DNA of 64,000 nucleotides from an uncultured Verrucomicrobiota bacterium (GTDB lineage: Bacteria; Verrucomicrobiota; Verrucomicrobiia; Limisphaerales; UBA9464): NCBI GenBank assembly GCA_903916195.1, contig CAIWVP010000162.1, positions 26,159 to 90,158 on the forward strand, read 5' to 3'. Positions 7,600 through 64,000 of this stretch are shown in pieces. The position numbers and the translations under genes were made by a program. The notes under the pieces were generated by a model. That model was given only the letters and a program-made list of their open reading frames with translations, had not been told where the DNA came from and ran no database searches. Each line of letters starts with the position of its first letter. Positions within the stretch are counted from its first letter, which is position 1.

Positions 7600-7625
7600 C
7601 ACGGACTTCCGGGACGACGAGCTGC

Positions 7626-11325: not shown

Positions 11326-11419
11326 GGATGAACCACGCGGTCACCAGATCTCCGGAATCTCACGGCCGTCGGCCCGGGGCCGTCGCTCCCGCGCCTGGCA
11401 CGGGACCCACCCCTTCCCC

Positions 11420-15800: not shown

Positions 15801-16364
15801 GACACGACCTCGGCCGGGATCGAGCGCACGCCGTACTTCGACGAGGCGTCGGGCGTGACCCTCGGATTCGACCGCGCCAACGCCGAGGCGGGCGGCTTCA
15901 CCGAAGTGGTCCCGCCCCGGGCGCTGTTGATCCACATCCACAACCTGAGCGGCGAGCACGCGGACGTCGTCCGCCTCGACCTCGCGACGCCCGACGTGGA
16001 CGCCGATGGCATGGACGACGGATGGGAGCTGGCGCACTTCGGCGACCTCTCCCACACCGGCGCGGAGGACTCCGACGGCGACGGGGCGACCGACCGGCAG
16101 GAATTCCTCGCCGGCTCCGACCCGTCCGATCCGGCCACGGCGTTCCGGTTGTCGGCGCAGCCGGCCACGTCGTCGGCCGGCACGACCCGGCTCCGCTGGC
16201 CCAGCACGGCCGGCCGCACCTACGCGGTCGAGCGCGCCGCGCGGTTGCCGGGGCCGTTCACGGTCGTGCGCACCGGCATCCGGGCCACACCGCCGCAGAA
16301 TGAATCCGACGACCTCGCCCCGACCGGCGACGCCACCGTCTTCTACCGCATCCGGATCGAGTGA
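12852..16364 (+). CDS. Secreted subtilisin-like S8 serine protease with PA-domain insert and long C-terminal extension
   Basis: ATG 12852 gives the signal peptide MKLKLLIPFLLVLCSGPLLRA. Catalytic motifs are IIDSGID, HGTHVAG and GTSMSAPHVSG. The PA-like insert is KGKIALIDRGDCLF. The tail has Asp-rich DxDxDG calcium-type repeats and ends ...VFYRIRIE. Confidence 0.85.
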   Translation: MKLKLLIPFLLVLCSGPLLRADRPVAVFLELEGPSVAELDLAAAEHTGARPAVMPTPSSDRLAAIRRQQAELEPLLAPLEAKITGRFGILVNAVRVRVLESRIPALSALPGVVRVQRVHRYKPDLESSVPWIGAPAAWAGTVGGLTGTGIRIGIIDSGIDYYHADFGGRGRAADHENDDPKVIEPGSFPTTKVVGGTDFVGDDYDAGDTAKDTPVPDPDPLDTKEHGHGTHVAGIAAGLGVLADGSTYTGAHDSKVDFTRFKIGPGVAPDAKLYALKVFGRSGSTDAVTDALDWAADPDDDGRTTDHLDVVNLSLGGDFGSYDAADVELKAVDRLARLGCVVVVSAGNAGDTHYILGSPGLAPRAITVANSIDNGTSTLDLRVLSPASIATHYPAVEGAATVTAPLAEVGPKTAQVVATSPADACGTLSNTAALKGKIALIDRGDCLFADKIAKAQAAGSIGIIMVNNQDGPPIPMGGKATEPITIPGVMISKADGALLRAHLIDGVTATLSSAIVTVHPELADQIEESSSRGPTYPDNRLKPDLAAPGTSIRSAEAGGGSSGVVNSGTSMSAPHVSGAAALLKQAHPNWPVDDIKAALMGTTVILHDAGGHLYPKSRAGAGRLQVDAAAATAVVAKADNSLGEVSISFGLHELSGPLSLNRSVRVVNHGGSPVTLDLTVATSVAEPGITLTPSVPTLTVPANGATSVVFRLDADPSRFVRTRDLTAVADIGGVPRPQLPESSGDIWLRGGGASLHVPWHIVARAASQRAVTATHVGLPAGPTGTLTLPGRGPSAHSAPLVAAFQLGLAKAPVAFTPLGASTDVLAIGAASDIATAGTMASTTLYFGIATAGRWSTPNRAANDLDVEIDLDGDNMADFTLINGNTGTFGVGDVDSYGDSTDALETVVRDEATGDLVGSHPLDLFGAGPHDAALFANGVMVHSAAATDIGLSATRTRFRYRVLTRGEFYDTTDWVVFDAAKPVIDTTSAGIERTPYFDEASGVTLGFDRANAEAGGFTEVVPPRALLIHIHNLSGEHADVVRLDLATPDVDADGMDDGWELAHFGDLSHTGAEDSDGDGATDRQEFLAGSDPSDPATAFRLSAQPATSSAGTTRLRWPSTAGRTYAVERAARLPGPFTVVRTGIRATPPQNESDDLAPTGDATVFYRIRIE

Positions 16365-39526: not shown

Positions 39527-41707
39527 TCAGCGGGCCGCGGTCTTCCAGGCGGGCTTCAGTTCGTGGACCTCCAGCGATGTGATCTTGGCAGCGCCGCCCT
39601 TGGCTTCGAGCGACAAGGCAAGGTCGCCGGGCTTCGGCTGATACGGCATCGGGATGTAGGCGAGGCCGTCGCTGGCGAAGACCTCCAGACCGGTCCGGTC
39701 GCAATAGACGACAAGGCGTTGCCTGCCGTTCCGCAACGGCGCGGGCGCAGTGTGGCCGGCGACGGAGATCTCCTGTTTCCTGGCATCGTAGATGATCTTG
39801 GCGCCGCGCACGGTGAAGACGACCTCGGAGGCGTCACCCGGAGCGAACTCGGCGCGCAGTTCCACCAGTTCCGCCTTCACCTTGGCCAACGGATCCCGGC
39901 CGCCGGGCTCCAGCATCGATCGGCCGAAGCGGTGCGACCGGGAGCGCAACGAAACAAGTTCCTTCACCGGCGTGTAGGTCAACCGCGGTCCATCGGGCGT
40001 CGCAGTGAGCTTGAGTTCCAGCGGGACGGTCATCGACTGGTTGAAGGACATCCCTTTCGTCTCGGTCTGGAACCAGCCGATCTGGACGCGGCGGCCGTCC
40101 TTGGCCGGGAGGTCGCTGAAGGTCTGCGGGGCGTAGAAGCCGCGACCGCGCTGGCCGGTGAGCTTCGTCTGCTCAGGCGTGAAACGCGTGCCGTCGAAGG
40201 TGCCGGTCGCGTACTGGGTGTCCGCGGCGGCCAGCACCCACTTCTTCTTTGAGGCATCGCCGTCCACCGGTAGCTCGAAGAAATCTGGGCACTCGAAGAG
40301 GTAGCTGCTGCCGGCGACGCCCTCGGTGATGCTGGCGAGCGTCCAGTCGCGCAGGTTCGGCGACCGGAAGAAGTGGATGGTATGCTTGTTCCCGGGCAGG
40401 CCGACGTAGAGGACCATCACCCACGACTTCGACGGCTCGTGCCACATCACCTTCGGGTCGCGGTTGCCGCCGGTGACCTGTCGCACGACGGGATTGCCTG
40501 GGTACTTGGTGAAGGTGCGCCCGTCGGTGCTCGACGCGATGCACTGGACGGCCGGGTCGCCGGCGGCGGTGTAGATCAACACGATCGGCGGCTTGCCGTC
40601 CTTGCCGAGGCCGCTGGTGTTCTTCCAGTCCACGACCGCGCTGCCGCTGAACATCGGGCCCATCGCATCCGGCACGAGTTTGTCGCCCAACTCTTCCCAA
40701 TGGACCATGTCGCGGCTGACGGCGTGGCCCCAGTGCATGTTGCCCCACGGCCAGCCGTAGGGGTTGTGCTGGAAGAAGAGATGGTACTCGCCCGCGAAGT
40801 AGACCATGCCGTTCGGGTCGTTGTTCCAGCCGCGCTTGGGCGAGAAATGAAACTGGCCGCGCAACGGCTCGCGGTACAGGTCCGCCGGTCCGCGGACCGT
40901 GTCGACCGGCCGGATGGCACCGATGGCAGCGGAATCTTCCGGCAACTTGTCGACCTGGAGGGTGATGTCCTTGCCGAGCCAGGCGCCGACGTCCATCGGC
41001 GCCCACCAATCGGGCTCGCCGTCGGCCAGCGCGGTGTCGATGCGGAGGACGCTCTTGCCGTCGACGAGCACGTTGACCACGCGGTTCGGGCCGCCGTTCT
41101 TGACCGGGATCTCGAGGAAGCGCCGTGTCACGTGGAACCGCCGCTTCGCGTCGGCGACCCACCCGACCGGCTTGTGGTCGGTCTGGACGATATGATCGAC
41201 GTTGATGTGGCCCCAGCCGCCGGTGGCGCGGTCGGTGATGAGGATGACGGCGGTCTTGCCAGCGAACTCGGAGACATCCCACGAAGCAGGCGCGAGCGCC
41301 TCGGTGCCGCCGTCGCGGTCGTTCGGACCGGTGGCGTTCCGGACCGCCTTGCCGTCGACCAGCAAGTCCATGCAGGTCTTCCCGGCGTCCTTGCCGCCGC
41401 CGATGAGGAAACCGATGAACCGGCGCCCGATCTTGAACTCCGGCGACGTGAGCGTGCCGGTGGACTTGTCGCCGCCGACGAAGGAATCCACGAGGCCCTT
41501 GCCTTTGAATCCGTCCACGCGCATCTGACCGGGCAACGTCCCTCGCGCGGGCCCGGACCCGAAGGCGTCACCGGTGGAGGTCCAACCGCCGTAGTCCGCC
41601 CCCTCGAAATCGGCGATGACGATGTCATCCGCGGCGCGCGCCGGGGCGGAAGCGGCGAAGATCGCGGCACAGGCCACGATCGATGCGAGGACGGGACGGA
41701 TGCACAT
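39527..41707 (-). CDS. Secreted glycoside hydrolase family 32 (levanase / beta-fructosidase type) with an N-terminal accessory domain
   Basis: ATG 41707 gives the signal MCIRPVLASIVACAAIFAASAPARA. WNNDPNG (nucleophile), RDPKV and FECPD motifs. Confidence 0.85.
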   Translation of the reverse strand: MCIRPVLASIVACAAIFAASAPARAADDIVIADFEGADYGGWTSTGDAFGSGPARGTLPGQMRVDGFKGKGLVDSFVGGDKSTGTLTSPEFKIGRRFIGFLIGGGKDAGKTCMDLLVDGKAVRNATGPNDRDGGTEALAPASWDVSEFAGKTAVILITDRATGGWGHINVDHIVQTDHKPVGWVADAKRRFHVTRRFLEIPVKNGGPNRVVNVLVDGKSVLRIDTALADGEPDWWAPMDVGAWLGKDITLQVDKLPEDSAAIGAIRPVDTVRGPADLYREPLRGQFHFSPKRGWNNDPNGMVYFAGEYHLFFQHNPYGWPWGNMHWGHAVSRDMVHWEELGDKLVPDAMGPMFSGSAVVDWKNTSGLGKDGKPPIVLIYTAAGDPAVQCIASSTDGRTFTKYPGNPVVRQVTGGNRDPKVMWHEPSKSWVMVLYVGLPGNKHTIHFFRSPNLRDWTLASITEGVAGSSYLFECPDFFELPVDGDASKKKWVLAAADTQYATGTFDGTRFTPEQTKLTGQRGRGFYAPQTFSDLPAKDGRRVQIGWFQTETKGMSFNQSMTVPLELKLTATPDGPRLTYTPVKELVSLRSRSHRFGRSMLEPGGRDPLAKVKAELVELRAEFAPGDASEVVFTVRGAKIIYDARKQEISVAGHTAPAPLRNGRQRLVVYCDRTGLEVFASDGLAYIPMPYQPKPGDLALSLEAKGGAAKITSLEVHELKPAWKTAAR

Positions 41708-41841
41708 AGGTATGGAGGAAACGGTTCCAGTTGTCCGCCGCCCCTGTCGAGGACGGCGTGAAGGAGTTCGCCCCGGAGGTCCAAGCCATCCGACCTGTGT
41801 TCCTGCTTGTGTCGGCGGCCCTGACCGATACCCAATCCGCC

Positions 41842-42909
41842 ATGCCAAGTCCTCTTCCGCCGGCCGCTTCCGCGCGCCGGCTCGTCGCCGCCGTCCTCCT
41901 CGCTCTCGCATCCGCTGCCGGTTGCGCCACGGGAAGCCATCCCGAGAAGCCCGGCACCGCGGGCGACGGCAGCTTCACCATCGGACCCGCTTACGCCGTC
42001 GATTCCGATCTCGCCGACAAGGGCAATCCCAAGGGCCGGTCGTTCGAGTTCACGATGCGCCTGGCCGACAGCAAGATCTTCCGGGGCGACGACACCACGC
42101 TGTTGCCCGCGAAGAAGGCCGTGCGCACCGAGCGCAAGATCTTCGTGTACGTGCCCGCCGCCTATCGCGACGGCACCGCGGCGCCGGTCCTCGTGACGCA
42201 TGACGGCCCGGGCCAGCTCAACCTCGTCCGCAACGCGCTGGACAACCTCACGATCTCCAAGGACCCCGACCGCCGGTTGCCGGCCTTCATCACCGTCGCC
42301 GTGGAGAACGGCGGCAACGACGGCAAGGACAGCGAGCGCGGGCTCGAGTACGACACGATGTCCGACCGCTTCGCGCGGTTCATCAACGACGAGGTGTTCC
42401 CCGCGGTGCTCGCCGACGCGAAGGTCCGCGCGGCCTACCCGCACATCGCCATCACCGCGAACCCGTGGGGCCGCGCGACGATGGGCTGTAGCTCCGGCGG
42501 CGCGGCGGCGCTCACGATGGCGTGGTTCCGCCCCGACCTGTTCCGCCGCGTGGCCGCTTACTCCGGCACCTTCGTCGACCAGCAGGACGACGATGCGCCG
42601 GAGGAGGCCAAGTTCCCGTACGGCGCGTGGGAGTACCACTCCAGCATGAAGCTCATCACCAACGGACCGAAGAAGCCGTTGCGGATCTTCACCCACGTCT
42701 CCGAGAACGACATCCGTGCCAAGGATCCCGAATCGACCCAGCACAACTGGGTGATGGCCGGCAAACGCACCGAGGCGGCGCTCCAGGAGAAAGGCTACAA
42801 CCACCGTTTCGTCTACAGCTTGGCCACCGGACACTGCGACAAAAAGGTGTTCGAGCAGACCTTGGCCGACACGCTAGTCTGGCTCTGGCGCGGCTACCGC
42901 GGGGAGTGA
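41842..42909 (+). CDS. Lipoprotein, 'putative esterase' (esterase D / enterochelin-esterase-like alpha/beta hydrolase)
   Basis: Lipobox LALASAAGC. GCSSGGAAALTMAWFRPDLFRRVAAYSGTF nucleophile-elbow region. Confidence 0.7.
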   Translation: MPSPLPPAASARRLVAAVLLALASAAGCATGSHPEKPGTAGDGSFTIGPAYAVDSDLADKGNPKGRSFEFTMRLADSKIFRGDDTTLLPAKKAVRTERKIFVYVPAAYRDGTAAPVLVTHDGPGQLNLVRNALDNLTISKDPDRRLPAFITVAVENGGNDGKDSERGLEYDTMSDRFARFINDEVFPAVLADAKVRAAYPHIAITANPWGRATMGCSSGGAAALTMAWFRPDLFRRVAAYSGTFVDQQDDDAPEEAKFPYGAWEYHSSMKLITNGPKKPLRIFTHVSENDIRAKDPESTQHNWVMAGKRTEAALQEKGYNHRFVYSLATGHCDKKVFEQTLADTLVWLWRGYRGE

Positions 42910-45309: not shown

Positions 45310-46512
45310 CTACTTCGAACCGAGCGCGCTTGCCATGGTGAAGATCGGCAGCAGGAGGCCCAGCGCCAAGAAGCCGATGGCCGCGGCCACGAGGCACAAG
45401 ATCGCCGGCTCGATGAGCCGCACCGCTTGGTCGACCTGGCGGTTCGTCCGGCGCTCCACGGTGTCGGCGATCTGGACGAGGACCTTGTCGAGGTTGTTGG
45501 ATTCCTCGGCGACGGCGATCATCGCGAGGATCTGCTCCGGGATGAAATCGCTCTTGCTGAGCGGTTCGGACAACCGCTTGCCGTCGCGCACCGCTTCCGC
45601 GGATTCGGCCACGAGGTCCGCGAGGATGCTGGAGCCCGTGGCGTCCTTGCTGATCTTCAGCGCATGGAGCAGCGGCACTCCGTTGGCCAGCATGGTGCCG
45701 AGGATGCGGCAGAAGCGGGTGATCGCGAGCAACCGGAGCGCGGAGCCGACGACCGGGATCTTGAGCTGCCAGCGCTCCAGCTTCCGGCGGACGACGTCGT
45801 TCCGCAGGTTGAACCAGAGGAATCCGACGACGGCGCCGATCGCGGGGATGAGCAGGTACCAGTAGCTGCGCACGACGCGGCTGGCCATGAACATCACCTC
45901 GGACGGGAGCGGCTTCTTCACGTTCGCCAGCAGCGGCTCGAACTTCGGCACGAAGAACATCAGCGCCGCCAGCATCACCACCGTGCCGAGCCCGGCCAGC
46001 AGCGCCGGATAGATCAGCGCGCCCATGACCTTGCTCCGCAGTTCCTCGAACCGCTCGATGAACCCCGCCAGGCTGCGTAGCACCTCCTCCATGAACGCCG
46101 CCCGTTCACCGGCTTGGATCATCGCCGTGTGCAACGGCGGGAAGACCTCCGGGAACTGGCGCAGGGTCTCGGTCAGCGACTTGCCGTCCGCGACCGCCGC
46201 GCGGATCTCCTTGAGCAGCTCGCGGAGCCCGGGCGCCGGGGTGGAGCGGATCAACGAATCGAGCGTCCGCAGCAACGGCACGCCGGATCCCAAAAGGTCG
46301 GCCATCTGCCCGTAGAGCGTGCCGAGATCGGCGGAGCGCACCCGGCGTTTCTTCGGGGCGCCCTTCGCCGTGCCGCCCTTCCCTCGGACGGACACCGGGA
46401 ACAACCGCTTCTCCTCGATCAACCGCATCGCGCCGGCCTCGCTCTCGGCCTCGACCGCGCCCGACACCTTCCCACCGGCCTCGGTCATCGCTATGTAGGT
46501 GAAATGGGGCAT
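45310..46512 (-). CDS. gspF: Type II secretion system inner-membrane platform protein GspF
   Basis: ATG 46512 (MPHFTYIAMTEAGGKVSG...). Two T2SSF repeats, 400 aa. The track ORF extends upstream through the repeat array and into gspE. Confidence 0.85.
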   Translation of the reverse strand: MPHFTYIAMTEAGGKVSGAVEAESEAGAMRLIEEKRLFPVSVRGKGGTAKGAPKKRRVRSADLGTLYGQMADLLGSGVPLLRTLDSLIRSTPAPGLRELLKEIRAAVADGKSLTETLRQFPEVFPPLHTAMIQAGERAAFMEEVLRSLAGFIERFEELRSKVMGALIYPALLAGLGTVVMLAALMFFVPKFEPLLANVKKPLPSEVMFMASRVVRSYWYLLIPAIGAVVGFLWFNLRNDVVRRKLERWQLKIPVVGSALRLLAITRFCRILGTMLANGVPLLHALKISKDATGSSILADLVAESAEAVRDGKRLSEPLSKSDFIPEQILAMIAVAEESNNLDKVLVQIADTVERRTNRQVDQAVRLIEPAILCLVAAAIGFLALGLLLPIFTMASALGSK

Positions 46513-46580
46513 GGATTCGGGGCAATGGGCGGTGGAAAACTTCTTCGATGGGCGATCGCGTCGGTCCGTGTTTTGATTAC

Positions 46581-46620
46581 TGGCCAACTGGCCAACTGGC
46601 CAACTGGCTAACTGGATAAC
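46581..46620. repeat. Tandem octamer array TGGCCAAC x3 + TGGCTAAC + TGGATAAC in the gspE-gspF spacer
   Basis: Read directly. On the transcribed (minus) strand it reads TTATCCAG TTAGCCAG TTGGCCAG x3. Each perfect unit contains the palindrome TGGCCA. Confidence 0.9.
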
Positions 46621-46631
46621 CCGCCCGCCCG

Positions 46632-48302
46632 CTAGAGCGCCGTGCATTGGACGACTTCGTCGGGGGTGGTGAGACCTTGGCGGACCTTGATCCAGCCGTC
46701 CTCGCGCAACAGGCGCAGACCCGATGGCCGGGCGGCCGCCACGATCTTCGGCGACGGCGCGCGGTCGATGATCAGCTCCGCGATCACGTCGGTCATCACC
46801 ATCAGCTCGTAGAGCCCGGAGCGACCGCGGAAGCCCGTGTTGCGGCAGTGCGGACATCCCTTGCCCCGCGCCAGCTTGGCGCCGGGCTCCAAGATGAGGT
46901 CGCGCGGCAGCGTCGCAGGGTCGGGCTCGTACTCTTCCTTGCACTTCGAGCAGATCCGGCGGACGAGCCGCTGCGCCATCGCGCCGATCATCGTGCTGCT
47001 CACAAGGAACGGTTCGACGCCCATCTCGATCAAGCGCATCGCAGCCGATGCCGAGTCGTTCGTGTGCAGCGTCGAGAGCACGAGATGGCCCGTCATCGCC
47101 GCCTGCGTCGCGGCGCGGGCGGTCTCGAGGTCGCGGATCTCGCCGATCATCACCACGTCCGGGTCGTGGCGGAGGATGGCGCGGAGGCCTTTCTCAAAGG
47201 TCATGCCCACCTGGTGGTTCACCGGGATCTGGTTCACGCCGTGGAGATGATATTCCACGGGGTCCTCGACCGTGAGCACCTTGATGGTGGAGCCGACGAT
47301 CGCGTTGAGCGCGGCGTAGAGCGTGGTCGTCTTGCCCGAACCGGTCGGACCGGTGACGAGGAAGATGCCGTGCGGCCTGTCGATCAGGCCCTTGAACATG
47401 GCGTACGTCGTGTCGTCCATGCCCAGCTGCTGGAGCGTGAACAGCACGTTCGCCTTGTCCAGGAGACGCATGACGACGCCTTCGCCGAAAAGCATCGGGA
47501 TGACGCTCACGCGGACGTCCACCTGCCGGCCGCCCACCTGGAACTTGATGCGACCGTCCTGCGGGATGCGGCGCTCGGCGATGTTGAGGTTCGCGAGGAT
47601 CTTGATGCGGCTGATGATCGCGGCCTGGAACCGATGCATCTGGGGCGGCACGGAGGCTTCCTGCAGGACGCCGTCGATCCGGTAGCGGATGGAGATCTGG
47701 TGCTCGTACGGTTCGATGTGGATGTCCGAGGCCCGCTCGCTGACCGCCTCGATGATGATCTCGTTGACCAGCTTGATGACGCTCGCCTCCTGGGCCATCT
47801 CGAGCAGGTCTTCGCCGCCCTCGACCGACACGCCGCCGCCGGCGAGGTCGTCGGCCCCGACCATCTCGTCCAAGGTGTCGCCGCCGAGGCCGAAGTGGGT
47901 CTTGATCAGCTTCTCGATGTCGTCCCTCGGCGCGAGCACCGGCTGGATGTCGAGCCCGGTGCTGAGCCGCAGGTCGTCGAAGACGTAGAGGTCGAAGGCG
48001 TCGCTGGTGGCGACCTTGAGGATGCCGTTCTCGCGCGAGACAGGGAAGAGGCGCTTCCGGTAGACCACCTTCGATGGCAGCGCCCGCAGGACCTCCGGCG
48101 AGATGACCATGTCCGCGAGCTCGACGAGCGGCAGGTGGAGCTGGTCGGCCATCAGCACCAGCACCTGGCGCTCGGTGAGGAAGCCGAGCTGGATGACCGC
48201 GCGGTCCAGCCGCAGCCCCTCCGAACGCTGCAAGGCGACGGCGTCGCCGAGCTGCTCTTCGGTCAACAGACGGTTGACCAACAAAAGCTGGGTGAGGTTC
48301 AT
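46632..48302 (-). CDS. gspE: Type II secretion ATPase GspE
   Basis: N-terminal T2SSE_N/MshEN-like domain, Walker A GPTGSGKTT, and the tetracysteine CSKC...CPHC motif. ATG 48302 (MNLTQLLL) is preferred; the alternative start is 48353. Confidence 0.9.
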   Translation of the reverse strand: MNLTQLLLVNRLLTEEQLGDAVALQRSEGLRLDRAVIQLGFLTERQVLVLMADQLHLPLVELADMVISPEVLRALPSKVVYRKRLFPVSRENGILKVATSDAFDLYVFDDLRLSTGLDIQPVLAPRDDIEKLIKTHFGLGGDTLDEMVGADDLAGGGVSVEGGEDLLEMAQEASVIKLVNEIIIEAVSERASDIHIEPYEHQISIRYRIDGVLQEASVPPQMHRFQAAIISRIKILANLNIAERRIPQDGRIKFQVGGRQVDVRVSVIPMLFGEGVVMRLLDKANVLFTLQQLGMDDTTYAMFKGLIDRPHGIFLVTGPTGSGKTTTLYAALNAIVGSTIKVLTVEDPVEYHLHGVNQIPVNHQVGMTFEKGLRAILRHDPDVVMIGEIRDLETARAATQAAMTGHLVLSTLHTNDSASAAMRLIEMGVEPFLVSSTMIGAMAQRLVRRICSKCKEEYEPDPATLPRDLILEPGAKLARGKGCPHCRNTGFRGRSGLYELMVMTDVIAELIIDRAPSPKIVAAARPSGLRLLREDGWIKVRQGLTTPDEVVQCTAL

Positions 48303-48623
48303 GGCTTTCGATGGATTGCGGTCGGGGGCGACGTTAGGGCAAGGCTCCGTCACGATGGAAGAGCGACGAGAGCCGGCCCGGACGCATTCGACGAAGCCCG
48401 GACGACTTCAGCGCCGGTGCCGCGGGCTTTCGGAGAGAGGGACGGAAGAATCGCCCACACCTGCCCGGCGAGGACGGCGCGGACCGCCGCGACCTGCGGT
48501 CCGTCCCCCCCCTGCCCTGCCGGAGCGGACACACACACCGGAAAAATCTCCAAGGGAAAGAGTTGAATCTTGCTGGCCCCGATGGCGTCCGCCTAGCGTC
48601 GAAGCCTAGAATTTGCACCACCT

Positions 48624-49136
48624 ATGACAGTCCCGAAATTCGCCGCCCTGAACCGCCGCCGCCGACAGATGTCCGGCTTCACCTTGATCGAGATCCTTCT
48701 CGTCATCGTCATCATCCTGCTGCTCGCCGGCGCGCTCGTGGTGTTCGTCCTCCCGCAGCAGAAAGGCGCGGAGAAGAACACGACGCGGCTGATGCTCCAA
48801 CAGGTCGGCAGCGCTCTCGACACCTACCGGCTCAACCTCGGCCACTATCCGAACGAGCAGGAAGGCGGCATCGACGCCTTGCTCAAGAAGCCGAGCTTCG
48901 AGAACGAGCGTCTCGGCGAGAAATGGCAAGGGCCCTACCTGAAACCCGGCACGACGCTCGACGATCCTTGGAACAACAAGATCCGCTACGAGCTCAACGA
49001 CCGCGCGACCGAAGGCGAGAAGGCCGGTGCGCTGCCCTACAAGCTGTTCTCGGTCGGGCCGGACGGACAGCCCGACACCGACGACGACATCAAGCTCGCC
49101 TCGGAGAGCTCCGACCCCAACGGCGCCCCGAAGTGA
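48624..49136 (+). CDS. gspG: Major pseudopilin GspG
   Basis: Prepilin leader ...RRRRQMSG/FTLIEILLVIVII with Glu+5. DDPWNNKIRYE and FSVGPDGQPDTDDDI GspG motifs. Confidence 0.9.
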   Translation: MTVPKFAALNRRRRQMSGFTLIEILLVIVIILLLAGALVVFVLPQQKGAEKNTTRLMLQQVGSALDTYRLNLGHYPNEQEGGIDALLKKPSFENERLGEKWQGPYLKPGTTLDDPWNNKIRYELNDRATEGEKAGALPYKLFSVGPDGQPDTDDDIKLASESSDPNGAPK

Positions 49137-49166: not shown

Positions 49167-49871
49167 ATGCGCATCCAACCCGGTCATCGGCGGCGGCTTG
49201 CCGGGCCGGGTTTCACCTTGGTCGAGCTCTTGCTCACGGTCTCGCTCCTCTTGCTGATGGTCGGAGCCGGGATCCTCAACTTCGGTCCGGCGCAGGGCGG
49301 CGCGCGGCTTGACGAAGGCGCGACCCAAGTGGAGTCGCTCTTCCGCTACGCCCGGGCCCAGGCCGCCAGCAGCGGGCGGACGGTGAAGATCATCTTCCCC
49401 GACGGAGAACCGGTCCCGGCCGGAACCAATTCGACGTCGACCGCCCCGGGCATCCAGGTCGCGTGGGAGACGGACCCGCTCGGCGCGCCGGGACAATTCG
49501 AGGCGCTGGCGGAAGCCAAACCCTACACCACGCATATCGACGAATTGGTCCGCGTACGGCCGTTCCGGGCACCGTTCTCCGCGATGTCGGCCTCCGCGGG
49601 TCCGTCAGCTTCGTCGTTGTCGCCGTCGCCGGCACCAACAGGATCGACCGCGGGGGGCGACGCGACTTCCACGCCGCAGGCGCTCACGATCCTGTTCTAT
49701 CCGGATGGCTCCAGCGATTCCGCCGAGGTCGTCCTGGGTTCCTTGGATGACGGCGATGCCAAGCAACTGGCCATCAAACTTTCCGGCCTCACCGGGGTGT
49801 TGAGACGGCGCGCGATCGAGCTCGTCGCCGGAGAAGCCGCCCCGGCGGCGCCTTGGGACCCTCCGAGATGA
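49167..49871 (+). CDS. gspH: Minor pseudopilin, GspH-like
   Basis: Leader ...LAGPG/FTLVELLL, in the position after gspG. Confidence 0.65.
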   Translation: MRIQPGHRRRLAGPGFTLVELLLTVSLLLLMVGAGILNFGPAQGGARLDEGATQVESLFRYARAQAASSGRTVKIIFPDGEPVPAGTNSTSTAPGIQVAWETDPLGAPGQFEALAEAKPYTTHIDELVRVRPFRAPFSAMSASAGPSASSLSPSPAPTGSTAGGDATSTPQALTILFYPDGSSDSAEVVLGSLDDGDAKQLAIKLSGLTGVLRRRAIELVAGEAAPAAPWDPPR

Positions 49872-50326
49872 TGCCGGGATGCCCAGCGCGCCGGTCGGAC
49901 CGACGCCATCGCGACTTCGCGCGGCGCGGAGCGGCGCTGCTCGAGGTCCTGATCGCGCTGGCTCTGTTCGTCGCGGCGGCGGCCGTCGTCACCGGTGCGT
50001 TGAACTCCTCGTTGGAGAGCCTCGAGCGCCAGAAGCTCGGAACCCACGCCGTCAACTTGGCGAGCAGCGTCATGGCCGAGATCCAGCTCGGGATCCGCGC
50101 GCCCGGCGGAGAAGGTCGGCGACCGTTCGATGCACCGTTCCAGGATTGGACCTGGGAGGCTTCGCTGCTGCCCGTCGAGAACGCCACCGGCACCACCGCT
50201 GGATCCATGCGCGTCGAAGTGGTGGTGCGGCACAAGACCGCTCCGGTGGTCCAACGATTGGCCCAGGTCATCCGCATCGGACGCAGCGCTGCGGCCGACG
50301 CGCTCACCGCCGTCCGGGAACCCTGA
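49868..50326 (+). CDS. gspI: Minor pseudopilin, GspI-like
   Basis: ATGA overlap with the previous stop. ...RRGAALLEVLIALALF N-terminal helix. 152 aa. Confidence 0.6.
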   Translation: MMPGCPARRSDRRHRDFARRGAALLEVLIALALFVAAAAVVTGALNSSLESLERQKLGTHAVNLASSVMAEIQLGIRAPGGEGRRPFDAPFQDWTWEASLLPVENATGTTAGSMRVEVVVRHKTAPVVQRLAQVIRIGRSAAADALTAVREP

Positions 50327-50329: not shown

Positions 50330-51133
50330 ATGCGCCCCGGATCCTCCCACATCGCCCGCGGCGGCGGACATATCCGGCGGGATGCGCGCGGCAGCGCGTT
50401 CACGCTGGTCGAAGTGATCCTCGCCATCGCCATCGCGACCGGCCTGTTGGTCATCGCGTTGACCTTCTACCGGCAGGCGACCGACCTGCGCGGACAGATC
50501 CTCGAGGAATCGGAACGGATCTCCGTGGTGCGGCTCGTGGCGGACCGGCTCACGGCGGACCTTCGCCAAGCACAACCGGTGGCGGGCGATGCGGAGAGTT
50601 TCGTGGGCGGATCCGGCTCGGTCCGTTTCACGAGGGCCTCGCTGGCGGTGCCTTCGGGACACGGGCCCGACGGCTCGGTCTCCGTCGGCCCCGATGTCGT
50701 CCGGGTCTCGTACGACACGGTGACCGGCCCCGACGGCACGAACACCGTGGTCCTCGGGATCGACCGGACAGAATCGCCGTTGTCGGCGCGCCCTCGGGCC
50801 GGGATATCGGCGTCGGCGTCGGGGTCGGCCGCGCCGCTGGACGCTTCGATCCTGGCACCCGCTGCCACGAACCGTCCCGCCGAACTGCTCACCGACCAGG
50901 TCCGTTTCATCCGCTTCCGTTTCTGGGACGGCGGCGCGTGGCAAGAAAGTTGGACGAATCAAGTGCCGCCTCCCGGCGTCGAGGTCGTGCTCGGGACCGA
51001 GCCGCTGCCCGACGACGCGACACCGGAGACCTATCCGTACGAACAATTCCGCCGCGTCGTCGTCGTGCCGGCCGGATCCGCGCGGCGAAGCGACGACACG
51101 AACAGCCTCTCCGCCTTGGTGCCGACATTGTGA
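50330..51133 (+). CDS. gspJ: Minor pseudopilin, GspJ-like
   Basis: ...GSAFTLVEVILAIAI N-terminal helix. Size and position match gspJ. Confidence 0.6.
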   Translation: MRPGSSHIARGGGHIRRDARGSAFTLVEVILAIAIATGLLVIALTFYRQATDLRGQILEESERISVVRLVADRLTADLRQAQPVAGDAESFVGGSGSVRFTRASLAVPSGHGPDGSVSVGPDVVRVSYDTVTGPDGTNTVVLGIDRTESPLSARPRAGISASASGSAAPLDASILAPAATNRPAELLTDQVRFIRFRFWDGGAWQESWTNQVPPPGVEVVLGTEPLPDDATPETYPYEQFRRVVVVPAGSARRSDDTNSLSALVPTL

Positions 51134-52614
51134 AACCGCACGTGGACATCCTCCGCCGACAGCGTCGCCCCGGCCCGCGCCGAGGCTTCGTGCTGCTCGC
51201 TGTGCTCGTGTTCGTCATGCTGTTGTCGATGGTGACGGTGAGCCTGTTGTTCCGTTCGCGCGCCGAGGAGACCGCGGCCAGCGCGAGCGCGGGCGCGGAG
51301 CAGGCGTGGGCCGCGGCGTTGAGCGGCGTCGAGGAGGCGCTGCGCGCCGCTTCGGCCGCCGTTCCCGGGAACGAGACGTGGGCCGATGATCCTGCGGCCT
51401 TCCGCGGACGGCTCGTCACGGAGGACGGCGCGGACCGCTGGTATTTCACGATCTTCTCGCCCGGCGACAGTTCCTCCCCGGTGGAGATCCGCCACGGCCT
51501 GACCGACGAGGCGCGCCGGATCGACCTGAACCACATCGGCGCCGCCGACCTGGCCAAGATCCCCCGGATGACGCCGGCGATGGCGCAGGCTTTGCGCCAA
51601 GCCGTGGGGACCGGTCCCGACGACGCCGACCCGGTCGATCCGGTCGATCCGCTCGCCACGACCCCCGACGACGCCGTCGGGCGCGCGGATCTGGGCGACG
51701 CCGACGTCGTCCCGGCGACGGTCCCGACCCTCGGCGTGCTCCCGGTCCGGACCGCGGGACCGCTGACGAGCCTGGACGACCTGCTCGGTGTGCCGGGTTT
51801 CAGCTGGTCGTTGCTCCACGGAGAGGACGCGAACCTCAACGGCCGCCTCGACCCGAACGAGAACGACGGCGACGAGCAGTTCCCGCCCGACAACAAGGAC
51901 AACCGGCTCGACCACGGGATGGGACAGTATCTCACGGTCGGGTCGTACGAACGGAGCCGCACCCGGGCCGGCCGGCCCAAGATCGATCTGAACGACCCGT
52001 CCGCGCCGTTGCCCGAGGCCGGGTTGCCGGCCTCGTTCACCAATTATGTCGCGGCGCTGCGTGCCGCGAAGGTGAAGCTCCGGCATCCCTCCGAGGTCCT
52101 GGAAGCCTCGGTGCGGTCCAAGGACGAACAGGGCAAGGAAACGGAGATCGCCTCGGGCATCACGAAGGAAGAGCTGCCGCTGGTGCTCGACCTGTTCACG
52201 ACCGATGCCAAGGACCGACGCGAAGGACTGGTGAACATCGGCACCGCCGACGCGCTGGTGCTCGCGACGTTGCCGGGCATCGATCCCGCGCTCGCTGAGA
52301 CCATCGTCTCGACGCGCGGCGGGCTCGGGGCCGACCGGCGCGCGACCATCGCGTGGTTGTTCCAGGAGGGCATCGTCGACGCCGCCCGTTTCAAGGTGAT
52401 CGCCCCGCAGATCACGACCGGCAGCCACCAGTTCAGCTTCCACGTCATCGGCTACGGAGTGCCGTCCGGCCGCTACCGGGTGCTCGACGCGACCATCGAT
52501 GTCGCCGGCGAGGTGCCGCGCGTGACCCGGCTCCGCGACATCACCCGGCTCGGCCTGCCGTTCAAGCTGGTCGGAGATATCCTCGAAGAAGCCCGTTCCG
52601 GGGCTTCACTTTAG
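51130..52614 (+). CDS. gspK: Minor pseudopilin GspK-like (no Glu+5)
   Basis: GTGA overlap with the gspJ stop. RRGFVLLAVLVFVMLLSMV helix lacks Glu5, as in GspK. GLTDEARRIDLNHI and SAM-like helix-hairpin segments are present. Confidence 0.65.
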   Translation: MKPHVDILRRQRRPGPRRGFVLLAVLVFVMLLSMVTVSLLFRSRAEETAASASAGAEQAWAAALSGVEEALRAASAAVPGNETWADDPAAFRGRLVTEDGADRWYFTIFSPGDSSSPVEIRHGLTDEARRIDLNHIGAADLAKIPRMTPAMAQALRQAVGTGPDDADPVDPVDPLATTPDDAVGRADLGDADVVPATVPTLGVLPVRTAGPLTSLDDLLGVPGFSWSLLHGEDANLNGRLDPNENDGDEQFPPDNKDNRLDHGMGQYLTVGSYERSRTRAGRPKIDLNDPSAPLPEAGLPASFTNYVAALRAAKVKLRHPSEVLEASVRSKDEQGKETEIASGITKEELPLVLDLFTTDAKDRREGLVNIGTADALVLATLPGIDPALAETIVSTRGGLGADRRATIAWLFQEGIVDAARFKVIAPQITTGSHQFSFHVIGYGVPSGRYRVLDATIDVAGEVPRVTRLRDITRLGLPFKLVGDILEEARSGASL

Positions 52615-52646: not shown

Positions 52647-54326
52647 ATGTCGAACCCCCTTCGCCAACTTGCTCCGGTCCTCCGGCTCCTCCGGCTCCGC
52701 CGCGAGCGCCGGCCTCGCCCGCCTTCCTCGGTCACCGCGCTCGACCTGGACGGCTCGACCTTGCGCGTCGTCCAAGCCGGACCACGCGGCAGCGTGCCGA
52801 AGGTCTTCGCCGAGACGCTGGAGCTAGCGCCAGACGCCGACCGCAACGATCCGGTCGTCATGGGCGCGGCCGTCGCCAAGGCGCTGGTGAAGCTGCGGCT
52901 CAAACCCGCCGGCGTCGTGATGGGCGTGCCGCGGGCCAAGGTCGTCCTGCGGACCCTCACCGTGCCCGTCATCGAGAAACTCCCGGAGCTCGCCTCCGTC
53001 GTGCATCTCCAGGTCGGCAAAGACCTGCCGTTCCGCATGGACGAGGCGGTCGTCGACTTCAAGGTGCGCGGCCAGGTGTTGGTCCCCGCGGAACGCACCG
53101 AAGCCGCCGCCGGCCCGGAGGTCGTCGGCGAAGCCGCCGGGATCGCCCCCCGGTTGGAAGTGCTGGTCGCCGCGGTGAAGCGCGAGGTCGTCGAGTTCTA
53201 CCAACGCCTGGCCGAAGCCGCCGGCCTCCAGCTCGCAGGCCTGGGGCTGCTGCCCTATGCGAACGCCCGGTGCGTCGAGGAATGCCATGTCGCCGACGGC
53301 GATGCGGCGTTCGCGCTCGTCTCGCTCCGTCCGGACGAGGCCGGCATCGATATCATCGCGCAGCGCTCGCTGCTCTTCAGCCGCGGCGCGGTGATCCGGA
53401 CCGCTGGCGAGACGCCGCCGTCCGGCGAGCCCGCGGCACCATCGGCCGAGGCGTTCGTGCGGTCGGTCGTGATCGAGGTCGTGCGCTCGCTGCACGGCTA
53501 CAGCGGCCAGGAAGCCAGCCCCGCGGTGGCCAAGGTCGTGGTCACCGGCGCGACCGGGCACGAGGCGGATGTCGCGGCGGCGCTGGGCACGCGGTTGAGC
53601 TCGCCTTGCGAGCTGCTGGACCCGACGACGGCGCTGGCGTTGCCGCCCGGGTCCCGCGAGCACGCCGCCGGTTCCATCGGCGCGCTCGGACTGGCGTTCG
53701 GCCTCGCCGACGTGCGCGGACTGCCGTTCGACTTCCTCAAACCGAAACGTCCCGCGGTCCAGCGGGACCTCCGGAAGATCCGCATCCTCTCCGGGCTCGC
53801 GGCGTCGGCCGTCGTCCTCGCCGCCGTCTTCGGGCTGCGCGGCTATCTCGTCGGGAAACGCGAGGCGATCCTCGCCGCGGCCAGGGCCGAGCTGGCCGAC
53901 GCCGAGAAGAAGCGCCCGGTCTACCGGAAGATGATCCAGCAGGCCGGCGTCGTGGACGACTGGATCAAGGCGGACCGCGATTGGCTGGTCCACTACGCCT
54001 ATCTCACTTCGGTCCTCCCGCCGAGCGAGGAGGTCTATCTGACCTCGCTCGCGATCAGCGGCCAGGGATCCGTGCGCCTCGCCGTCCAGGCGCGGAGCGG
54101 CGAGACCTTGGCGCGCCTCGACAAGCGGCTGCGCGAGGCCGGCTACGACGTGAAACCGGTCGCCATCACGCCGGGACCGGACCGCTTCGGCTACGAGTTC
54201 CGTTCTACCGTCGAGCTGACCGTTCCCGACAAGCTCAAGATCGACCTGCACAAGGTGAGGCCCGCCGTCCGCCCGATCGACGATGTGTCGCTCGAGGCCT
54301 CGGCCTACAAGCGAGGTGGCGCATGA
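52647..54326 (+). CDS. PilM-like (actin-fold) + TM + PilN-like fusion; functional GspL equivalent
   Basis: ATG 52647. ALDLDGSTLRVVQA is an actin-like phosphate-1 motif. There is a mid-protein TM helix (ILSGLAASAVVLAAVFGL), then a coiled coil and a ferredoxin-like tail. Confidence 0.65.
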   Translation: MSNPLRQLAPVLRLLRLRRERRPRPPSSVTALDLDGSTLRVVQAGPRGSVPKVFAETLELAPDADRNDPVVMGAAVAKALVKLRLKPAGVVMGVPRAKVVLRTLTVPVIEKLPELASVVHLQVGKDLPFRMDEAVVDFKVRGQVLVPAERTEAAAGPEVVGEAAGIAPRLEVLVAAVKREVVEFYQRLAEAAGLQLAGLGLLPYANARCVEECHVADGDAAFALVSLRPDEAGIDIIAQRSLLFSRGAVIRTAGETPPSGEPAAPSAEAFVRSVVIEVVRSLHGYSGQEASPAVAKVVVTGATGHEADVAAALGTRLSSPCELLDPTTALALPPGSREHAAGSIGALGLAFGLADVRGLPFDFLKPKRPAVQRDLRKIRILSGLAASAVVLAAVFGLRGYLVGKREAILAAARAELADAEKKRPVYRKMIQQAGVVDDWIKADRDWLVHYAYLTSVLPPSEEVYLTSLAISGQGSVRLAVQARSGETLARLDKRLREAGYDVKPVAITPGPDRFGYEFRSTVELTVPDKLKIDLHKVRPAVRPIDDVSLEASAYKRGGA

Positions 54327-55351
54327 ACGCGCGCGAGAAGATCATGGCCGCCGCCGTCGGGGGCGTCGCCGCCCTCGTGCTCGTCGTCGCGGGAGTGCGG
54401 TCCGTGCTGTTGGCGCCGTTGCGCGAGATCGACAAGACCACCGCGGTCGTGCGCGAGAAGATCGCGAAGATCCAGGCCGACCGCCGCGCGTATTTCGTCG
54501 CCGAGGACAAGCTCAAGACCGTCGCGATGCGGACCTTCGCGGACAGCGTCGATCCCGCGAGCGCCAAGTCCGGCGAGATCCTCACGCAGCAGATCCTCGC
54601 GACCGGGCTGGAGGAATCAGATTTCACCCGCTTGCCGATCCAGCCGCGGAAGCTCCGCGGCGCCTACGAGCTGGGCTGGAACGTCCAGGGCGACGGACCG
54701 CTCACCAACGTGGTGAACCTGTTGTTCCTCCTGAACGAATCCCCGTGGCTGCACCGCACGGAGAACCTCACCGTCGCGAACGGCGACGCGCCGGGCAGCG
54801 TGCGGGTCCGCTTCCGCTACCTCACCCTCGTGCTGGATCCGGCACCCGATGTCGTGCGGACCAACCTCGCACCGGCCCGCACGCTCGAGTCGCCCGAACG
54901 GCACCTGCTCAACAGCATCGTCTCGCGCGACATCCTACGGCCCTACATCAAGCGTCCGCCCGCGCCCGTCCTCCCCGGACAGCCGCCGCGGCCGGCGTCC
55001 AAGCCAGGGGTGCCCCCCGGCCCGGAGACCTTCCGCGTCGTCTCGTTGTCAGAGTGGCGCGGCCAACCGGAGGTCCACGTGCGCGACCTCTCGGCGGGGA
55101 AGACCGTCCGCTACCGGCCCGGTGACGAGCTCGCCGGCGGCACCATCGCGATGGTCGATTACCGGTCGCTGCCCATGCCCGGCAACTCGCTGCTCATGTC
55201 CTCCAGCCGGTTGATCCTCAAGGTCGGCGCCGACTACTACGCGGTCGAGCGCGGCCGCACCCTCGCCGAGAAACGCCGGCTGGACGCTTCCGAAATTCCT
55301 CCCGGACTGGCCCCAGCGGCCGCGAAACCCCTCTCTTCTTCCAAGCCATGA
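54323..55351 (+). CDS. Bitopic protein: GspM/PilO-like N-terminal half + PilP/GspC-HR-like C-terminal beta domain
   Basis: ATGA overlaps at both ends. TM helix MAAAVGGVAALVLVVAGV, a Pro-rich linker, then FRVVSLSEWRGQPEVHVRDLSAGKTVRYRPGDELAGGTIAMVDY. Confidence 0.5.
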   Translation: MNAREKIMAAAVGGVAALVLVVAGVRSVLLAPLREIDKTTAVVREKIAKIQADRRAYFVAEDKLKTVAMRTFADSVDPASAKSGEILTQQILATGLEESDFTRLPIQPRKLRGAYELGWNVQGDGPLTNVVNLLFLLNESPWLHRTENLTVANGDAPGSVRVRFRYLTLVLDPAPDVVRTNLAPARTLESPERHLLNSIVSRDILRPYIKRPPAPVLPGQPPRPASKPGVPPGPETFRVVSLSEWRGQPEVHVRDLSAGKTVRYRPGDELAGGTIAMVDYRSLPMPGNSLLMSSSRLILKVGADYYAVERGRTLAEKRRLDASEIPPGLAPAAAKPLSSSKP

Positions 55352-58300
55352 AACCTATCCGATCGGTCCTCTTCGGTGCTTGCCTGCTGGCCGGCCTCAC
55401 GCTCGGGGCGCAGGACGCCGCCCGGCCGCCCGCGACCAACCCGCCCGCGCCTCCCCCGCCGTCGGCCGTGAAGCCCGAGTCGTCGAAGCCCGACGTCATC
55501 GTCAGCGCCAAGACCGCGCCGGCCCGCGACATCCGCTTCCAGTTCGACGGCATCCCGTACTCCGATGTCGTGGAACGGTTCGCGCAGATGGCCGGACGTC
55601 CGCTGCTCTCCGACACCAACGTCGTCGGCTCGCTCACCTACGACGACCCGAACGCCTACACCTACAACGAGGCGCTCGACACGTTGAACCTCATGCTCGC
55701 CATGAAGGGCGTGATGCTCCTCGAGGACGGCAACAACCTGCGGCTCGTCCCGTTCAAGCAGCTCCCTTCGATGCCCATCCGCATCATGCGCGGCACCGAG
55801 AACGCCGGCGACGTGCGACCGGGCGAGGTCGTCACCGTCGTGCTCGACGTCGCCAACCTGGAGGCCAAGGAGGTCGCCGATTCCGTCCTGCCGATGCTCT
55901 CGGGCGCCGGTTCCGTCGCACCGCTCTCGCGCGGTCGCGGCCTCGTCGTCACCGACCGCCTCTCGAACATCCAGCGCGTCCGCACGCTGCTCGCCACCAT
56001 CGGCACCGGCCAGTCCGCCGACCGCCAGATGAAGACCTACACCTTGCAGCACGCCTCGGGCGCCATCGTCTCGGACCTGCTGAACCGCACCTTCGGCATC
56101 GCCACCGCGCCGAAGCGGACCTCCTTCAACCCGAACACCAAAGCCATGGAGGTCCTGCCGCCGGATCCCGCCGACTACGTGACCTCGGTGTACGACGAGG
56201 CCTCGCGGACGTTGCTGCTCTTCGGCCCCCAGGAACGCTTGGCGCTGGCCGAGGAGCTGGTGAACAAGTTCGAGCAGAAAGACGGCTCGGCCGGCGATGT
56301 CCGCATCTATTACCCGCAATCGATGAAGGCCGACGAGCTGGCGAACCTGATCCGCCAAGCCATCCCGGGCGTCGCCGCCGCCAACGAATCCGCTTCCGCC
56401 GCCGCCACCAAGGCCCGCGTCATCCCCGACCTCGCCCTCAACCGCGTCATCGTCGCCGCCCCGCTCCCCGGCCAGCTCGACCAGATCGAGCAGCTGGTGA
56501 CCCGCGTGGACAAAGGCGTCCAGGGCGCCGTCGGCCAGAACGGCGAGAACCCGCTGGTGCCGACCCGCTCGCAGACGATCCAGCTCACGAAGATCTTCCG
56601 GCCGCGCGCGACCGGCGCGACCAACGTGGCCAGCATCGTCCGCCAGGCGTTGACCCGGCGGAACAGCTCCGGCCAGGTCGCCACCACCGCCAGCGTGAGC
56701 TTCGACGCCGGCAGCCAGAGCGTCGTGGTGACCGGTTCGCCGGCGGATCTCCAGACCGCGACCGACATCGTCTCGCAGATCGAGACCGGCACGTCTCAGC
56801 CGACGCCGTTGCAGACCCGCTTCATCGACGTCGGGTCGCCGGAGGAGGCCCAGCGCATCCAGCCGCTGGTCGACCAGCTCTACCGCAACCAGACGGCCGA
56901 CGGCTCGGCCGGCACGGTCGCGCACGCCAAGATCCTCGCCGACACCGGGTCCGGCCGCCTCATCGTCACCGCGAGCCAGGACCACCTCGCCCGCATCGAG
57001 GCCCTCGTGAAGCAGCTCCGCGCCGACCGGCCGCAGGGTCTGTCGCGCCACCTCCGGGTGGTGGTCCTGAAGAACACGCGCACCGAGACCGCGTTGCCCG
57101 GCATCCAGAGCCTCGTCACCGAACGGATGGCCGACCGGAGGTTCTCCTCCCTGCCCAAGCCTTCGCTCGTCGCCGACGCACCGAACAACCGCATCCTCGT
57201 CACCGCGACCGACGAGCAGCTCAAGGAGATCGAGGATGCCGTCGCCGTGGTCGACATCGCCCCGGCGCAGGCCGAGCGCGAGCTCAGCGTCATCCCGCTC
57301 CAGGTGAAGACCGCGCCGGAGATCATCCCGCTGGTCACGCAGCTCGTCGGGCAGCTCTCCGCGCCCGGCCAGCTCGCGCCGACCCTGATGGCCGACCCGA
57401 CCGGCAAGCAGATCATCGTGCTCGCCGTCGCCAAGGACCTGGAACGGGTGAGGACCCTGGTGAAACAGTTCGACGTCACGGCCGCGACCGCCGCGCCGCG
57501 ACAGTTCCGCGGCGTCGAGGTCTTCGGCCGCACCGCCGCCGAGTTCACGCCGCTGGTCCAGCAGCTCTACCAGGAACAGATCCGCGGGCAGCCCGAGCCC
57601 GCCGGCGGCCCGGCGACCTTGATCGCCGAGACCAAGAACAACCGCATCATGGTCAGCGGCGGCGAGAAGGAGATCGCCCGCGTCGAGGCCATCATCCGCC
57701 AACTCGACCCCGTCACGGCCAAGGGGTCGAAGGAAGAGACCCGCGTCATCCGCCTCAAGACCGCTTCCGCCGCCGAGATCGCCGGCCTGGTCGAGAAGAG
57801 CCTCAACGCACAGACCCAGCAGGTCCGCGTGCTGCTCGACGCCCGCAGCAACAGCCTCGTGATCACCGGCGAACACGCCGCCGTCGAGGCCGCCTGGCAG
57901 ATGGTCCAGCAGCTCGACACCCGCGGGGAATCCGGCCCGCGCGAGCTGCGCGTCATCGAGCTCAAGTCCGCCGATGCCGCGACCGTGGCGCCGATGGTCG
58001 GCAACCTGTTCGCCGAGCTGGTCAAGGACCAGCGAGGCGCCGATTACATCTCCGCGACCAAGGTCGTGGCCGACACCTTGGCCAACCGCCTCATCGTCAC
58101 CGGCAGCCACGCCGAGATCGAGCAGGTCGTCGCCCTCGTCGACCGACTCGACAACGCCCCTCAACAGGCGCCCGGCGCCCGCGTCTTCAAGCTCAACCTG
58201 GCCGAGGCGACCATGATGGCGCCCATCGTCTCCAACGCGATGGTGCGCTTCGACGCGCGCGGCCAGGCGGTCAAGCGCGTCACCGTCGCGGCCGACGAGA

Positions 58301-64000: not shown

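Follow-up and report, generated by a model that had tools for sequence, protein, structure and literature searches.

Secretins are a structural paradigm for the export of folded proteins, pili and phage by Gram-negative bacteria through their outer membrane. To our knowledge, all secretins with a solved structure possess two to six periplasmic rings. The piston-like models of pseudopilus action assume a vestibule of about 10-15 nm. This scale is challenged by a widespread and strongly conserved secretin family with 19-58 ring domains, which raises the questions of where the substrate enters, over what distance the pseudopilus extends and in what way gating is relayed. One member is encoded in a 64,000-nt stretch of DNA from an uncultured Verrucomicrobiota bacterium (contig CAIWVP010000162.1), referred to below as the window. 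Its gspD gene is located at 55348..64000 on the plus strand; the window contains the first 2884 of its ~3959 codons, and the remaining ~3.2 kb lie past the window end. The gene is real and conserved, and it codes for an outer-membrane secretin of a type II secretion system (T2SS).

The closest described relatives are GspD, PulD and XcpQ from characterized T2SSs (PDB 5WQ7, 6HCG, 5WLN). They have in common with the protein described here a signal peptide, an N0 domain, beta-alpha-beta-beta-alpha N-domains, a double-barrel core and a short tail. They are also its best matches in sequence and fold, and the gene is likewise encoded together with gspE, F, G, H, I, J and K and scores above the TIGR02517 cutoff. 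The canonical N0-N1-N2-N3 layout, however, is replaced. In the known proteins N0 is followed by three N-type domains (N1-N3) within ~650 amino acids (aa), whereas N0 is followed by 43 such domains within ~3959 aa here, and the linkers between them are nearly absent. A GspC partner with its HR domain was not recognised, and the candidate pilotin belongs to an unrelated lipoprotein family without a Pfam match.

A precedent for lengthening a secretin by added N-rings is offered by PilQ from Thermus thermophilus, where six stacked rings (N0-N5) with a length of 350 Å are described as spanning most of the wide periplasm (PMC5745081); its authors expressly connect the additional rings with this width. 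Among the literature searched, this is the largest periplasmic stack documented for a characterized secretin. A first-pass annotation of the window, made from the letters alone, had credited characterized secretins with about two to four such domains; in view of the six PilQ rings, the upper limit was slightly understated. In contrast to the protein studied here (T2SS, ~44 domains, ~3959 aa), Thermus PilQ serves the type IV pilus and DNA uptake with six rings in 757 aa. The T2SS secretin from Deinococcus radiodurans (PDB 8CO1), which came second in the fold search, is also a GspD-type protein in an unusual, thick envelope. According to the abstract of its description, adaptation was achieved there through extra proteins (belt, cap) and not through multiplication of N-domains (PMC10828601). 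Furthermore, T2SS-family secretins have been proposed to let a non-classical cargo pass the envelope in the GspD/PilQ 'nozzles' of cyanobacteria and myxobacteria (PMC12475490). These are of ordinary size (the construct numbering of Myxococcus GspD ends at aa 863), and a polysaccharide cargo is unsupported for the present locus. In a survey of outer-membrane pore families, the secretins measured 555 ± 151 aa (PMC4827864). In a preprint on 'giant genes' (10.1101/2023.11.21.568195), gspD appears only because it lies next to other giant genes of Omnitrophota, and no description of a giant many-module secretin architecture was found in the searched full-text literature. The protein is thus an elaboration of the GspD kind and not an ordinary member, with sequences that are already public under automatic names.

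The start codon (ATG, 55348-55350) overlaps the TGA stop of the upstream gene (55349-55351) in the arrangement ATGA. From there through 63999, all 2884 of 2884 codons are free of stops in the translation of the 64,000-nt window, in agreement with the first-pass reading of this frame as open to the window end. The G+C content of the window is 65-71%. The secretin frame displays the classical coding signature, with G+C contents of 0.69/0.44/0.95 at the three codon positions (GC1/2/3), while the antisense frame gives the mirror image, 0.95/0.45/0.69. Compared with the 95%-identical relative L002, the ratio of nonsynonymous to synonymous substitution rates (dN/dS) is 0.118 for the plus frame and 1.48 for the antisense frame. 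The antisense frame contains an open reading frame (ORF) of 2726 aa (55237..63417, minus strand), the translation of which matched no family in Pfam. Taken together, the codon-position G+C, the dN/dS ratios and the Pfam-negative antisense product establish that the plus-strand gene is real and that the antisense ORF is a shadow of high G+C content, not a gene. As the first-pass annotation remarked, the ORF list supplied with the window shows only the antisense ORF at this place; the plus frame is missing because the list omits frames that run off the window edge. Its concern about a mis-annotation by automated calling was not borne out. Hundreds of public contigs have the gene on the correct strand; the automatic names include 'hypothetical protein' and 'secretin N-terminal domain-containing protein', and some entries are named as GspD/PulD secretins. 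In L002 the antisense shadow ORF (L002:1031-13024, minus strand) is open for 3997 codons and even exceeds the real gene with its 3953 codons; its openness stems from a GC3 of ~0.94, which suppresses stop codons on the opposite strand.

The complete protein can be described from the public sequence P0001, which is 3959 aa long and shows 8 substitutions and 0 indels over the 2884 aa translated from the window. It consists of a signal peptide, N0, N1, 42 further modules, the secretin core (PF00263) and a short tail. All domain coordinates given here lie on the plus strand. The Sec-type signal peptide, MKPIRSVLFGACLLAGLTLGAQ (55348..55413), was recognised by inspection of the translation, as it had been in the first pass, and is followed by a Pro/Ala-rich linker up to ~aa 59. 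The N0 domain comprises aa ~60-140 (55525..55767). In Pfam it is matched weakly (aa 72-130, 15.4 bits, below the 27-bit cutoff), and its assignment as a GspD-type N0, already made in the first pass, is supported by a PDB profile match, an AlphaFold model and Foldseek. A profile of the N-terminal region built from 15 sequences aligned with GspD (5wq7) from residue 9 onwards (E 1.9e-11) and with XcpQ N0-N1 (E 6e-10). The AlphaFold monomer model of this region (predicted local distance difference test, pLDDT, of 74) retrieved PulD (1e-13), XcpQ N012 (6e-13) and also GspD N0-N1-N2 in Foldseek. The isolated N0 domain from enterotoxigenic Escherichia coli (4jtm) superposes on it with a TM-score of 0.83 and a root-mean-square deviation of 2.7 Å. 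The N1 domain at aa ~156-220 (55813..56007) was delimited by alignment to the N1 of XcpQ/GspD and by the secondary structure of the model.

In the window protein, Pfam finds 32 Secretin_N stretches (E 4e-262). In full-length P0001 there are 39 of them, together with a single PF00263 match at aa 3719-3884 (E 4.5e-49). The core therefore lies outside the window, which ends at codon 2884, and is found downstream, just as the first-pass annotation had expected from its absence by position 64000. A profile of the last 673 residues of P0001, aligned with 18 homologues, found its best PDB matches in T2SS secretins (PulD 6hcg, 4.6e-60; GspD 5wq7, 2e-59), followed by PilQ (~1e-35) and by phage pIV and InvG of the type III secretion system (T3SS; ~1e-21). 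The C-terminal AlphaFold model (pLDDT 63) contains four beta-alpha-beta-beta-alpha modules and then a beta-rich core, and all 45 of its 45 significant Foldseek matches are secretins. Both monomer models (C- and N-terminal) are only of moderate confidence, with pTM values of 0.36 and 0.43 beside pLDDT values of 63 and 74. Superposed as a whole on secretin protomers, they reach low TM-scores (0.25-0.48) because multi-domain monomer models do not reproduce the conformation within the ring; the fold assignment is based on the Foldseek E-values and the single-domain match to 4jtm, not on the global TM-score.

The protein thus has the marks of the secretin superfamily, i.e. the PF00263 pore (via P0001), the preceding Secretin_N domains and the signal peptide seen by inspection. 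It also has those of GspD: a score above the equivalog cutoff, N0 at the mature N-terminus and the context of a T2SS operon. For the NCBIfam model of GspD (TIGR02517) it obtains 712 bits, above the equivalog cutoff of 351.35 bits, a score that is inflated because 15 stretches of repeated N-domains are matched; the best stretch places model positions 2-271 on aa 65-353. The models of PilQ (TIGR02515, 189.5 bits) and of SctC from the T3SS (TIGR02516, 201.9 bits) remain below their cutoffs of 284.35 and 238.45 bits.

The modules were delimited by a hidden Markov model (HMM) trained on the protein itself. This yields 42 contiguous Secretin_N modules at aa 226-3654 of P0001, each 68-108 aa in length and joined by linkers of 0-3 residues. 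Modules 1-33 (56023..63978, aa 226-2877) are complete in the window and collinear with the modules of the homologues, and of module 34 only the start (from 63985) is included. The ~35 modules counted in the first pass thus correspond to 34 complete ones (N1 and modules 1-33) and one partial. Paralogous modules share a median identity of 26%. Modules 1-12 and 22-42 are strictly collinear across homologues, with 60-80% identity between orthologous modules against ~40% for the second-best match. All of the length variation among the compared homologues falls in a central expansion zone (59077..60924), where this gene carries two copies of a four-module cassette with a period of 927 nt: modules 14-17 (59077-59997) and modules 18-21 (60004-60924). 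The copies are 45-74% identical to each other in amino acids and 71-77% in nucleotides. In homologues with 37-51 modules, the cassette is present in one, two (as here), three or four copies. A period-4 super-repeat over the whole array was considered and rejected, as no such signal was detected outside modules 13-22 (permutation p 0.94 and 0.80).

The modules also differ along the array. Modules 1-23 are compact (68-90 aa), while many from module 24 onward contain insertions and measure 83-108 aa, with modules 26, 29, 31, 40 and 41 as the longest. By analogy with the loop insertion in N3 of GspD, which they resemble, the late insertions may form internal constrictions or gates. The short linkers and the positional orthology favour a fixed, position-specific packing over a floppy string, and the conserved identity of its own at every ring position argues for a defined, non-redundant architecture.

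Relatives are numerous. A pattern scan in which each GTDB species was represented by a single genome gave confirmed relatives of the C-terminal region in at least 594 species-level genomes. Almost all of the best 80 of these are labelled Verrucomicrobiota, Limisphaerales or Pedosphaera. Limisphaerales belongs to the Planctomycetes-Verrucomicrobia-Chlamydiae (PVC) group, so that the PVC-type host envisaged in the first pass was the right one. A profile search against 1.84 billion cluster representatives gave 9352 clusters at E<1e-30. Among the best 150 of these, 115 are complete (N0 and C-domain) and possess 19-58 modules and up to 5532 aa, so that module number indeed varies among homologues, as the first-pass annotation had proposed to check. 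The smallest (19-module) and the largest (58-module) members are both found in the same operon. The 115 closest full-length homologues have 37-51 modules, most often 42, 46 and 43. A closed Limisphaerales chromosome of 7.9 Mb carries an intact version of 4220 aa. Three independent assemblies run collinear to the window, with identities of 99.7% (L081), 96.6% (L001) and 94.8% (L002), and inside the secretin gene there are no DNA repeats above ~79% identity. The collapsed or inflated repeat that the first pass had named as a risk was accordingly not encountered. Several bins with a relative bear unexpected titles (L020, L034, L040, L047 and others, titled, for example, Akkermansia muciniphila, Klebsiella pneumoniae, Bifidobacterium sp., Cyanophyceae or Methylomirabilota); with their Verrucomicrobiota-type gene, they are probably mislabelled or contaminated. 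L038, titled 'Ellin514', is a metagenome bin bearing that label.

As to function, we cautiously favour the view that the giant GspD forms a conduit of stacked rings, leading from the outer-membrane pore to the inner-membrane platform. By homology with the solved secretins, 12-15 protomers would assemble, with every domain position forming one ring. The resulting 44 stacked rings would build a rigid hollow rod of ~5-6 MDa and ~0.13-0.18 µm, at 3-4 nm per ring (a height based on GspD cryo-electron microscopy structures and on the 350-Å six-ring PilQ of Thermus, PMC5745081). Suspended from the outer-membrane pore, the rod would dock via N0 on the inner-membrane platform. N0 and N1 are conserved at the far end of the array, which argues that such a rod would still make this contact. 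Inside the tube, the pseudopilus (GspG capped by GspH-K) would polymerise and grow through the whole length. Folded exoproteins that were loaded at the inner-membrane end would thereby be expelled via the gated pore. The extreme length might be an adaptation to an inner membrane that lies far from the outer membrane in the enlarged, irregular periplasm ('paryphoplasm') that has been reported for this lineage, with the module number (19-58 across the family) setting the reach. The cultured strain Pedosphaera parvula Ellin514 from Verrucomicrobia subdivision 3, a relative and not a confirmed carrier, was imaged with a ribosome-free paryphoplasm (PMC2647929). Later genomic arguments placed this compartment inside an outer membrane (PMC3422733). 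A further-reaching proposal, which we put forward only tentatively, is that the family provides the longest secretin conduits known: rods of 20-60 rings, ~60-190 nm and 3-9 MDa, with a length that would be set by module number through gain and loss of four-module cassettes and would match the depth of the PVC periplasm.

Several points weigh against such a conduit. The formation of rings by all 43 domains and the length and rigidity of the tube are extrapolations, and the monomer models are silent on the geometry between rings. The available passages of the Ellin514 paper (PMC2647929) give no depth of the periplasm. In the same window, a HlyD/MacA-type adaptor of ordinary size (462 aa) is encoded with MacB-like permeases. 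Its size implies that the membranes are normally spaced in at least some places, so that a rigid tube of 0.15 µm cannot fit everywhere; the long tube would then be meant for sites with a locally retracted inner membrane, or would not be straight. Finally, neither a GspC nor its HR domain was recognised anywhere in the operon with Pfam and PDB profiles, and only a candidate can be named as the docking partner of N0.

Some of these points are shared by a different explanation, in which the protein is a true giant secretin whose array is no closed ring stack reaching the inner membrane. Rings would be confined to the modules closest to the pore. The remaining modules would form a bundle that is flexible, splayed or bent and serves as a spacer, strut or tether, with secretion via a conventional short vestibule. 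Such an array could be a 'ruler' that sets or senses the distance between the membranes, or a scaffold threaded through wall layers. The oligomeric rings are drawn entirely from homology, and the ordinary adaptor of a tripartite pump in the window indicates a normal spacing in places, for which a rigid 0.15-µm tube is unfit. The contrast between the compact N-terminal two-thirds (68-79 aa per module) and a C-terminal third with insertions (up to 108 aa), like those of the gate-bearing N3 of GspD, hints at two functional regions. On the other hand, N0 and N1, which in known systems dock on the platform, are both kept and highly conserved at the far end, which is sensible only if that end meets the platform, and the near-zero linkers and position-specific conservation are unexpected for a floppy tether. 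We regard this explanation as rather unlikely, yet worth serious attention. It is quite improbable that the system is no classical protein-secreting T2SS at all and that the giant secretin is a long nozzle or sheath through which another cargo passes, for instance exopolysaccharide slime that is extruded, or a type IV-like fibre. T2SS-type secretins are reported to be needed for slime secretion via nozzles in cyanobacteria and myxobacteria (PMC12475490), the platform protein of this locus fits the models of PilM and not of GspL, and most component matches are below the curated equivalog cutoffs. The set of components is nevertheless typical for a T2SS, with one major and four minor pseudopilins including GspK. 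Moreover, GspD structures are matched ~25 orders of magnitude better than PilQ, the NCBIfam models of PilQ and SctC stay below cutoff while that of GspD is exceeded, and genes for polysaccharide synthesis were not found flanking the operon. That the gene is an artefact (an inflated or collapsed assembly repeat, a pseudogene, or a misread of a true antisense gene) has a negligible probability. The repetitiveness at the protein level and the 2726-aa antisense ORF could suggest it. The DNA repeats, however, do not exceed ~79% identity, and hundreds of full-length homologues exist. Assembly artefact and antisense gene are ruled out by the collinear assemblies L081, L002 and L001, the intact copy in the closed chromosome, the dN/dS ratios (0.118 against 1.48) and the antisense product without a family match.

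If the giant GspD does form the stacked-ring conduit, type II secretion and the extension of the pseudopilus would span ~5 times the distance of any characterized system. In that case it would also act as a molecular ruler, or as a marker, for the envelope architecture of the Verrucomicrobiota, which is disputed. The long-debated PVC cell plan with its enlarged periplasm or 'paryphoplasm' could be probed with it as a length standard that is encoded in the genome. The length of the rod should then be proportional to the number of modules (~60, 140 and 190 nm for 19, 43 and 58 modules), and the number of cassette copies should track the depth of the periplasm. Even without a tube, the position-specific conservation in a ~40-fold tandem array of domains is unusual.

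The genes encoded with the secretin are the T2SS core genes gspE, F, G, H-K, an L/PilM-like and an M-like gene, several of which score below the curated cutoffs. Judged by this gene content, the T2SS locus is complete and the secretin is the last large gene of its operon. The genes for the inner-membrane platform protein GspF (45310..46629; TIGR02120 E 1.4e-92, 311 bits against a cutoff of 424 bits) and for the secretion ATPase GspE (46632..48353; Pfam T2SSE E 1e-134, MshEN E 4e-19) are on the minus strand, with both divergent from the pseudopilin/secretin operon. On the plus strand, the operon includes the major pseudopilin gene gspG (48624..49136; Pfam T2SSG E 1e-20, N_methyl E 8e-6) and four genes for minor pseudopilins. 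The latter are gspH-like (49167..49871; Pfam GspH E 4.8e-7), gspI-like (49853..50326, with a start maybe at 49868 according to the gene call in L081; E 1e-6 for NCBIfam XpsI and 4e-6 for gspI, neither reaching its cutoff), gspJ-like (50330..51133; Pfam T2SSJ E 8.8e-5, below cutoff) and gspK-like (51190..52614, start taken from the L081 call; NCBIfam T2SS_GspK E 2.2e-11, below cutoff, with Pfam HHH_3 and T2SSK). They are followed, also on the plus strand, by a PilM/GspL-like assembly protein of 559 aa corresponding to the cytoplasmic domain (52647..54326; PilM_2 E 6e-13, TIGR01175 pilM E 1.3e-19, below cutoff), for which the start based on GC3 agrees with the L081 gene call.

Between this gene and the secretin, a conserved protein of 342 aa is encoded (54323..55351, plus strand). 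It consists of one N-terminal membrane helix, a coiled coil, an alpha/beta domain, a Pro-rich linker and a small, beta-rich C-terminal domain. The protein had no match in Pfam (up to E 10), NCBIfam or the PDB (phmmer and a 25-sequence profile). Its 617 homologues, all ~333 aa long, share 60-78% identity, are annotated as hypothetical and adjoin giant secretins. The full-length homologue from L083 (hhalign E 5e-57) does show weak matches to T2SSM_b/T2SSM (E 0.003-0.005), and the N-terminal half is probably GspM-like. The protein can be put forward as a candidate link between the inner-membrane platform and N0 of the secretin, in which the beta-rich C-terminal domain, perhaps similar to the HR domain of GspC or to PilP, may act as a GspC-like partner of N0.

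At or just after the secretin stop, ~3.2 kb past the window end, a gene for a small lipoprotein of ~170 aa starts (L081:17538-18056). Counterparts are located beside the 19-module and 58-module family members (L082:8286-8825 and L083:24596-25099). The three lipoproteins are only 23-31% identical to each other and have common motifs and a lipobox G-C after the signal peptide; against Pfam, they matched no family. This lipoprotein is a candidate pilotin, possibly of a new pilotin family.

Elsewhere in the window, a subtilase of 1213 aa with a PA domain and a bacterial TSP3 repeat (12723-16364) and a GH32 glycoside hydrolase of 794 aa (39527-41911, minus strand) are encoded. Both are plausibly exported and are possible T2SS cargo, without a link to the system. 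The adaptor mentioned above belongs to a cluster at 7867-12673, where the HlyD/MacA-type membrane-fusion protein precedes two MacB-like permeases with an ORF (9368-10105) between them. The segment at 364-7726 (DUF520-like, glycerate kinase, DAO/GCV_T fusion and cytochrome c genes) is 92-94% identical in DNA to L002:14286-22554, which lies directly downstream of the secretin and lipoprotein genes of L002. At the equivalent place in L081 (L081:18057-22744), despite its 99.7% identity, unrelated genes are present (HTH regulator, NPCBM/Fn3 protein, FUR). Two explanations come into question: the strains differ by a rearrangement, or a segment of ~68 kb is duplicated or circularly permuted.

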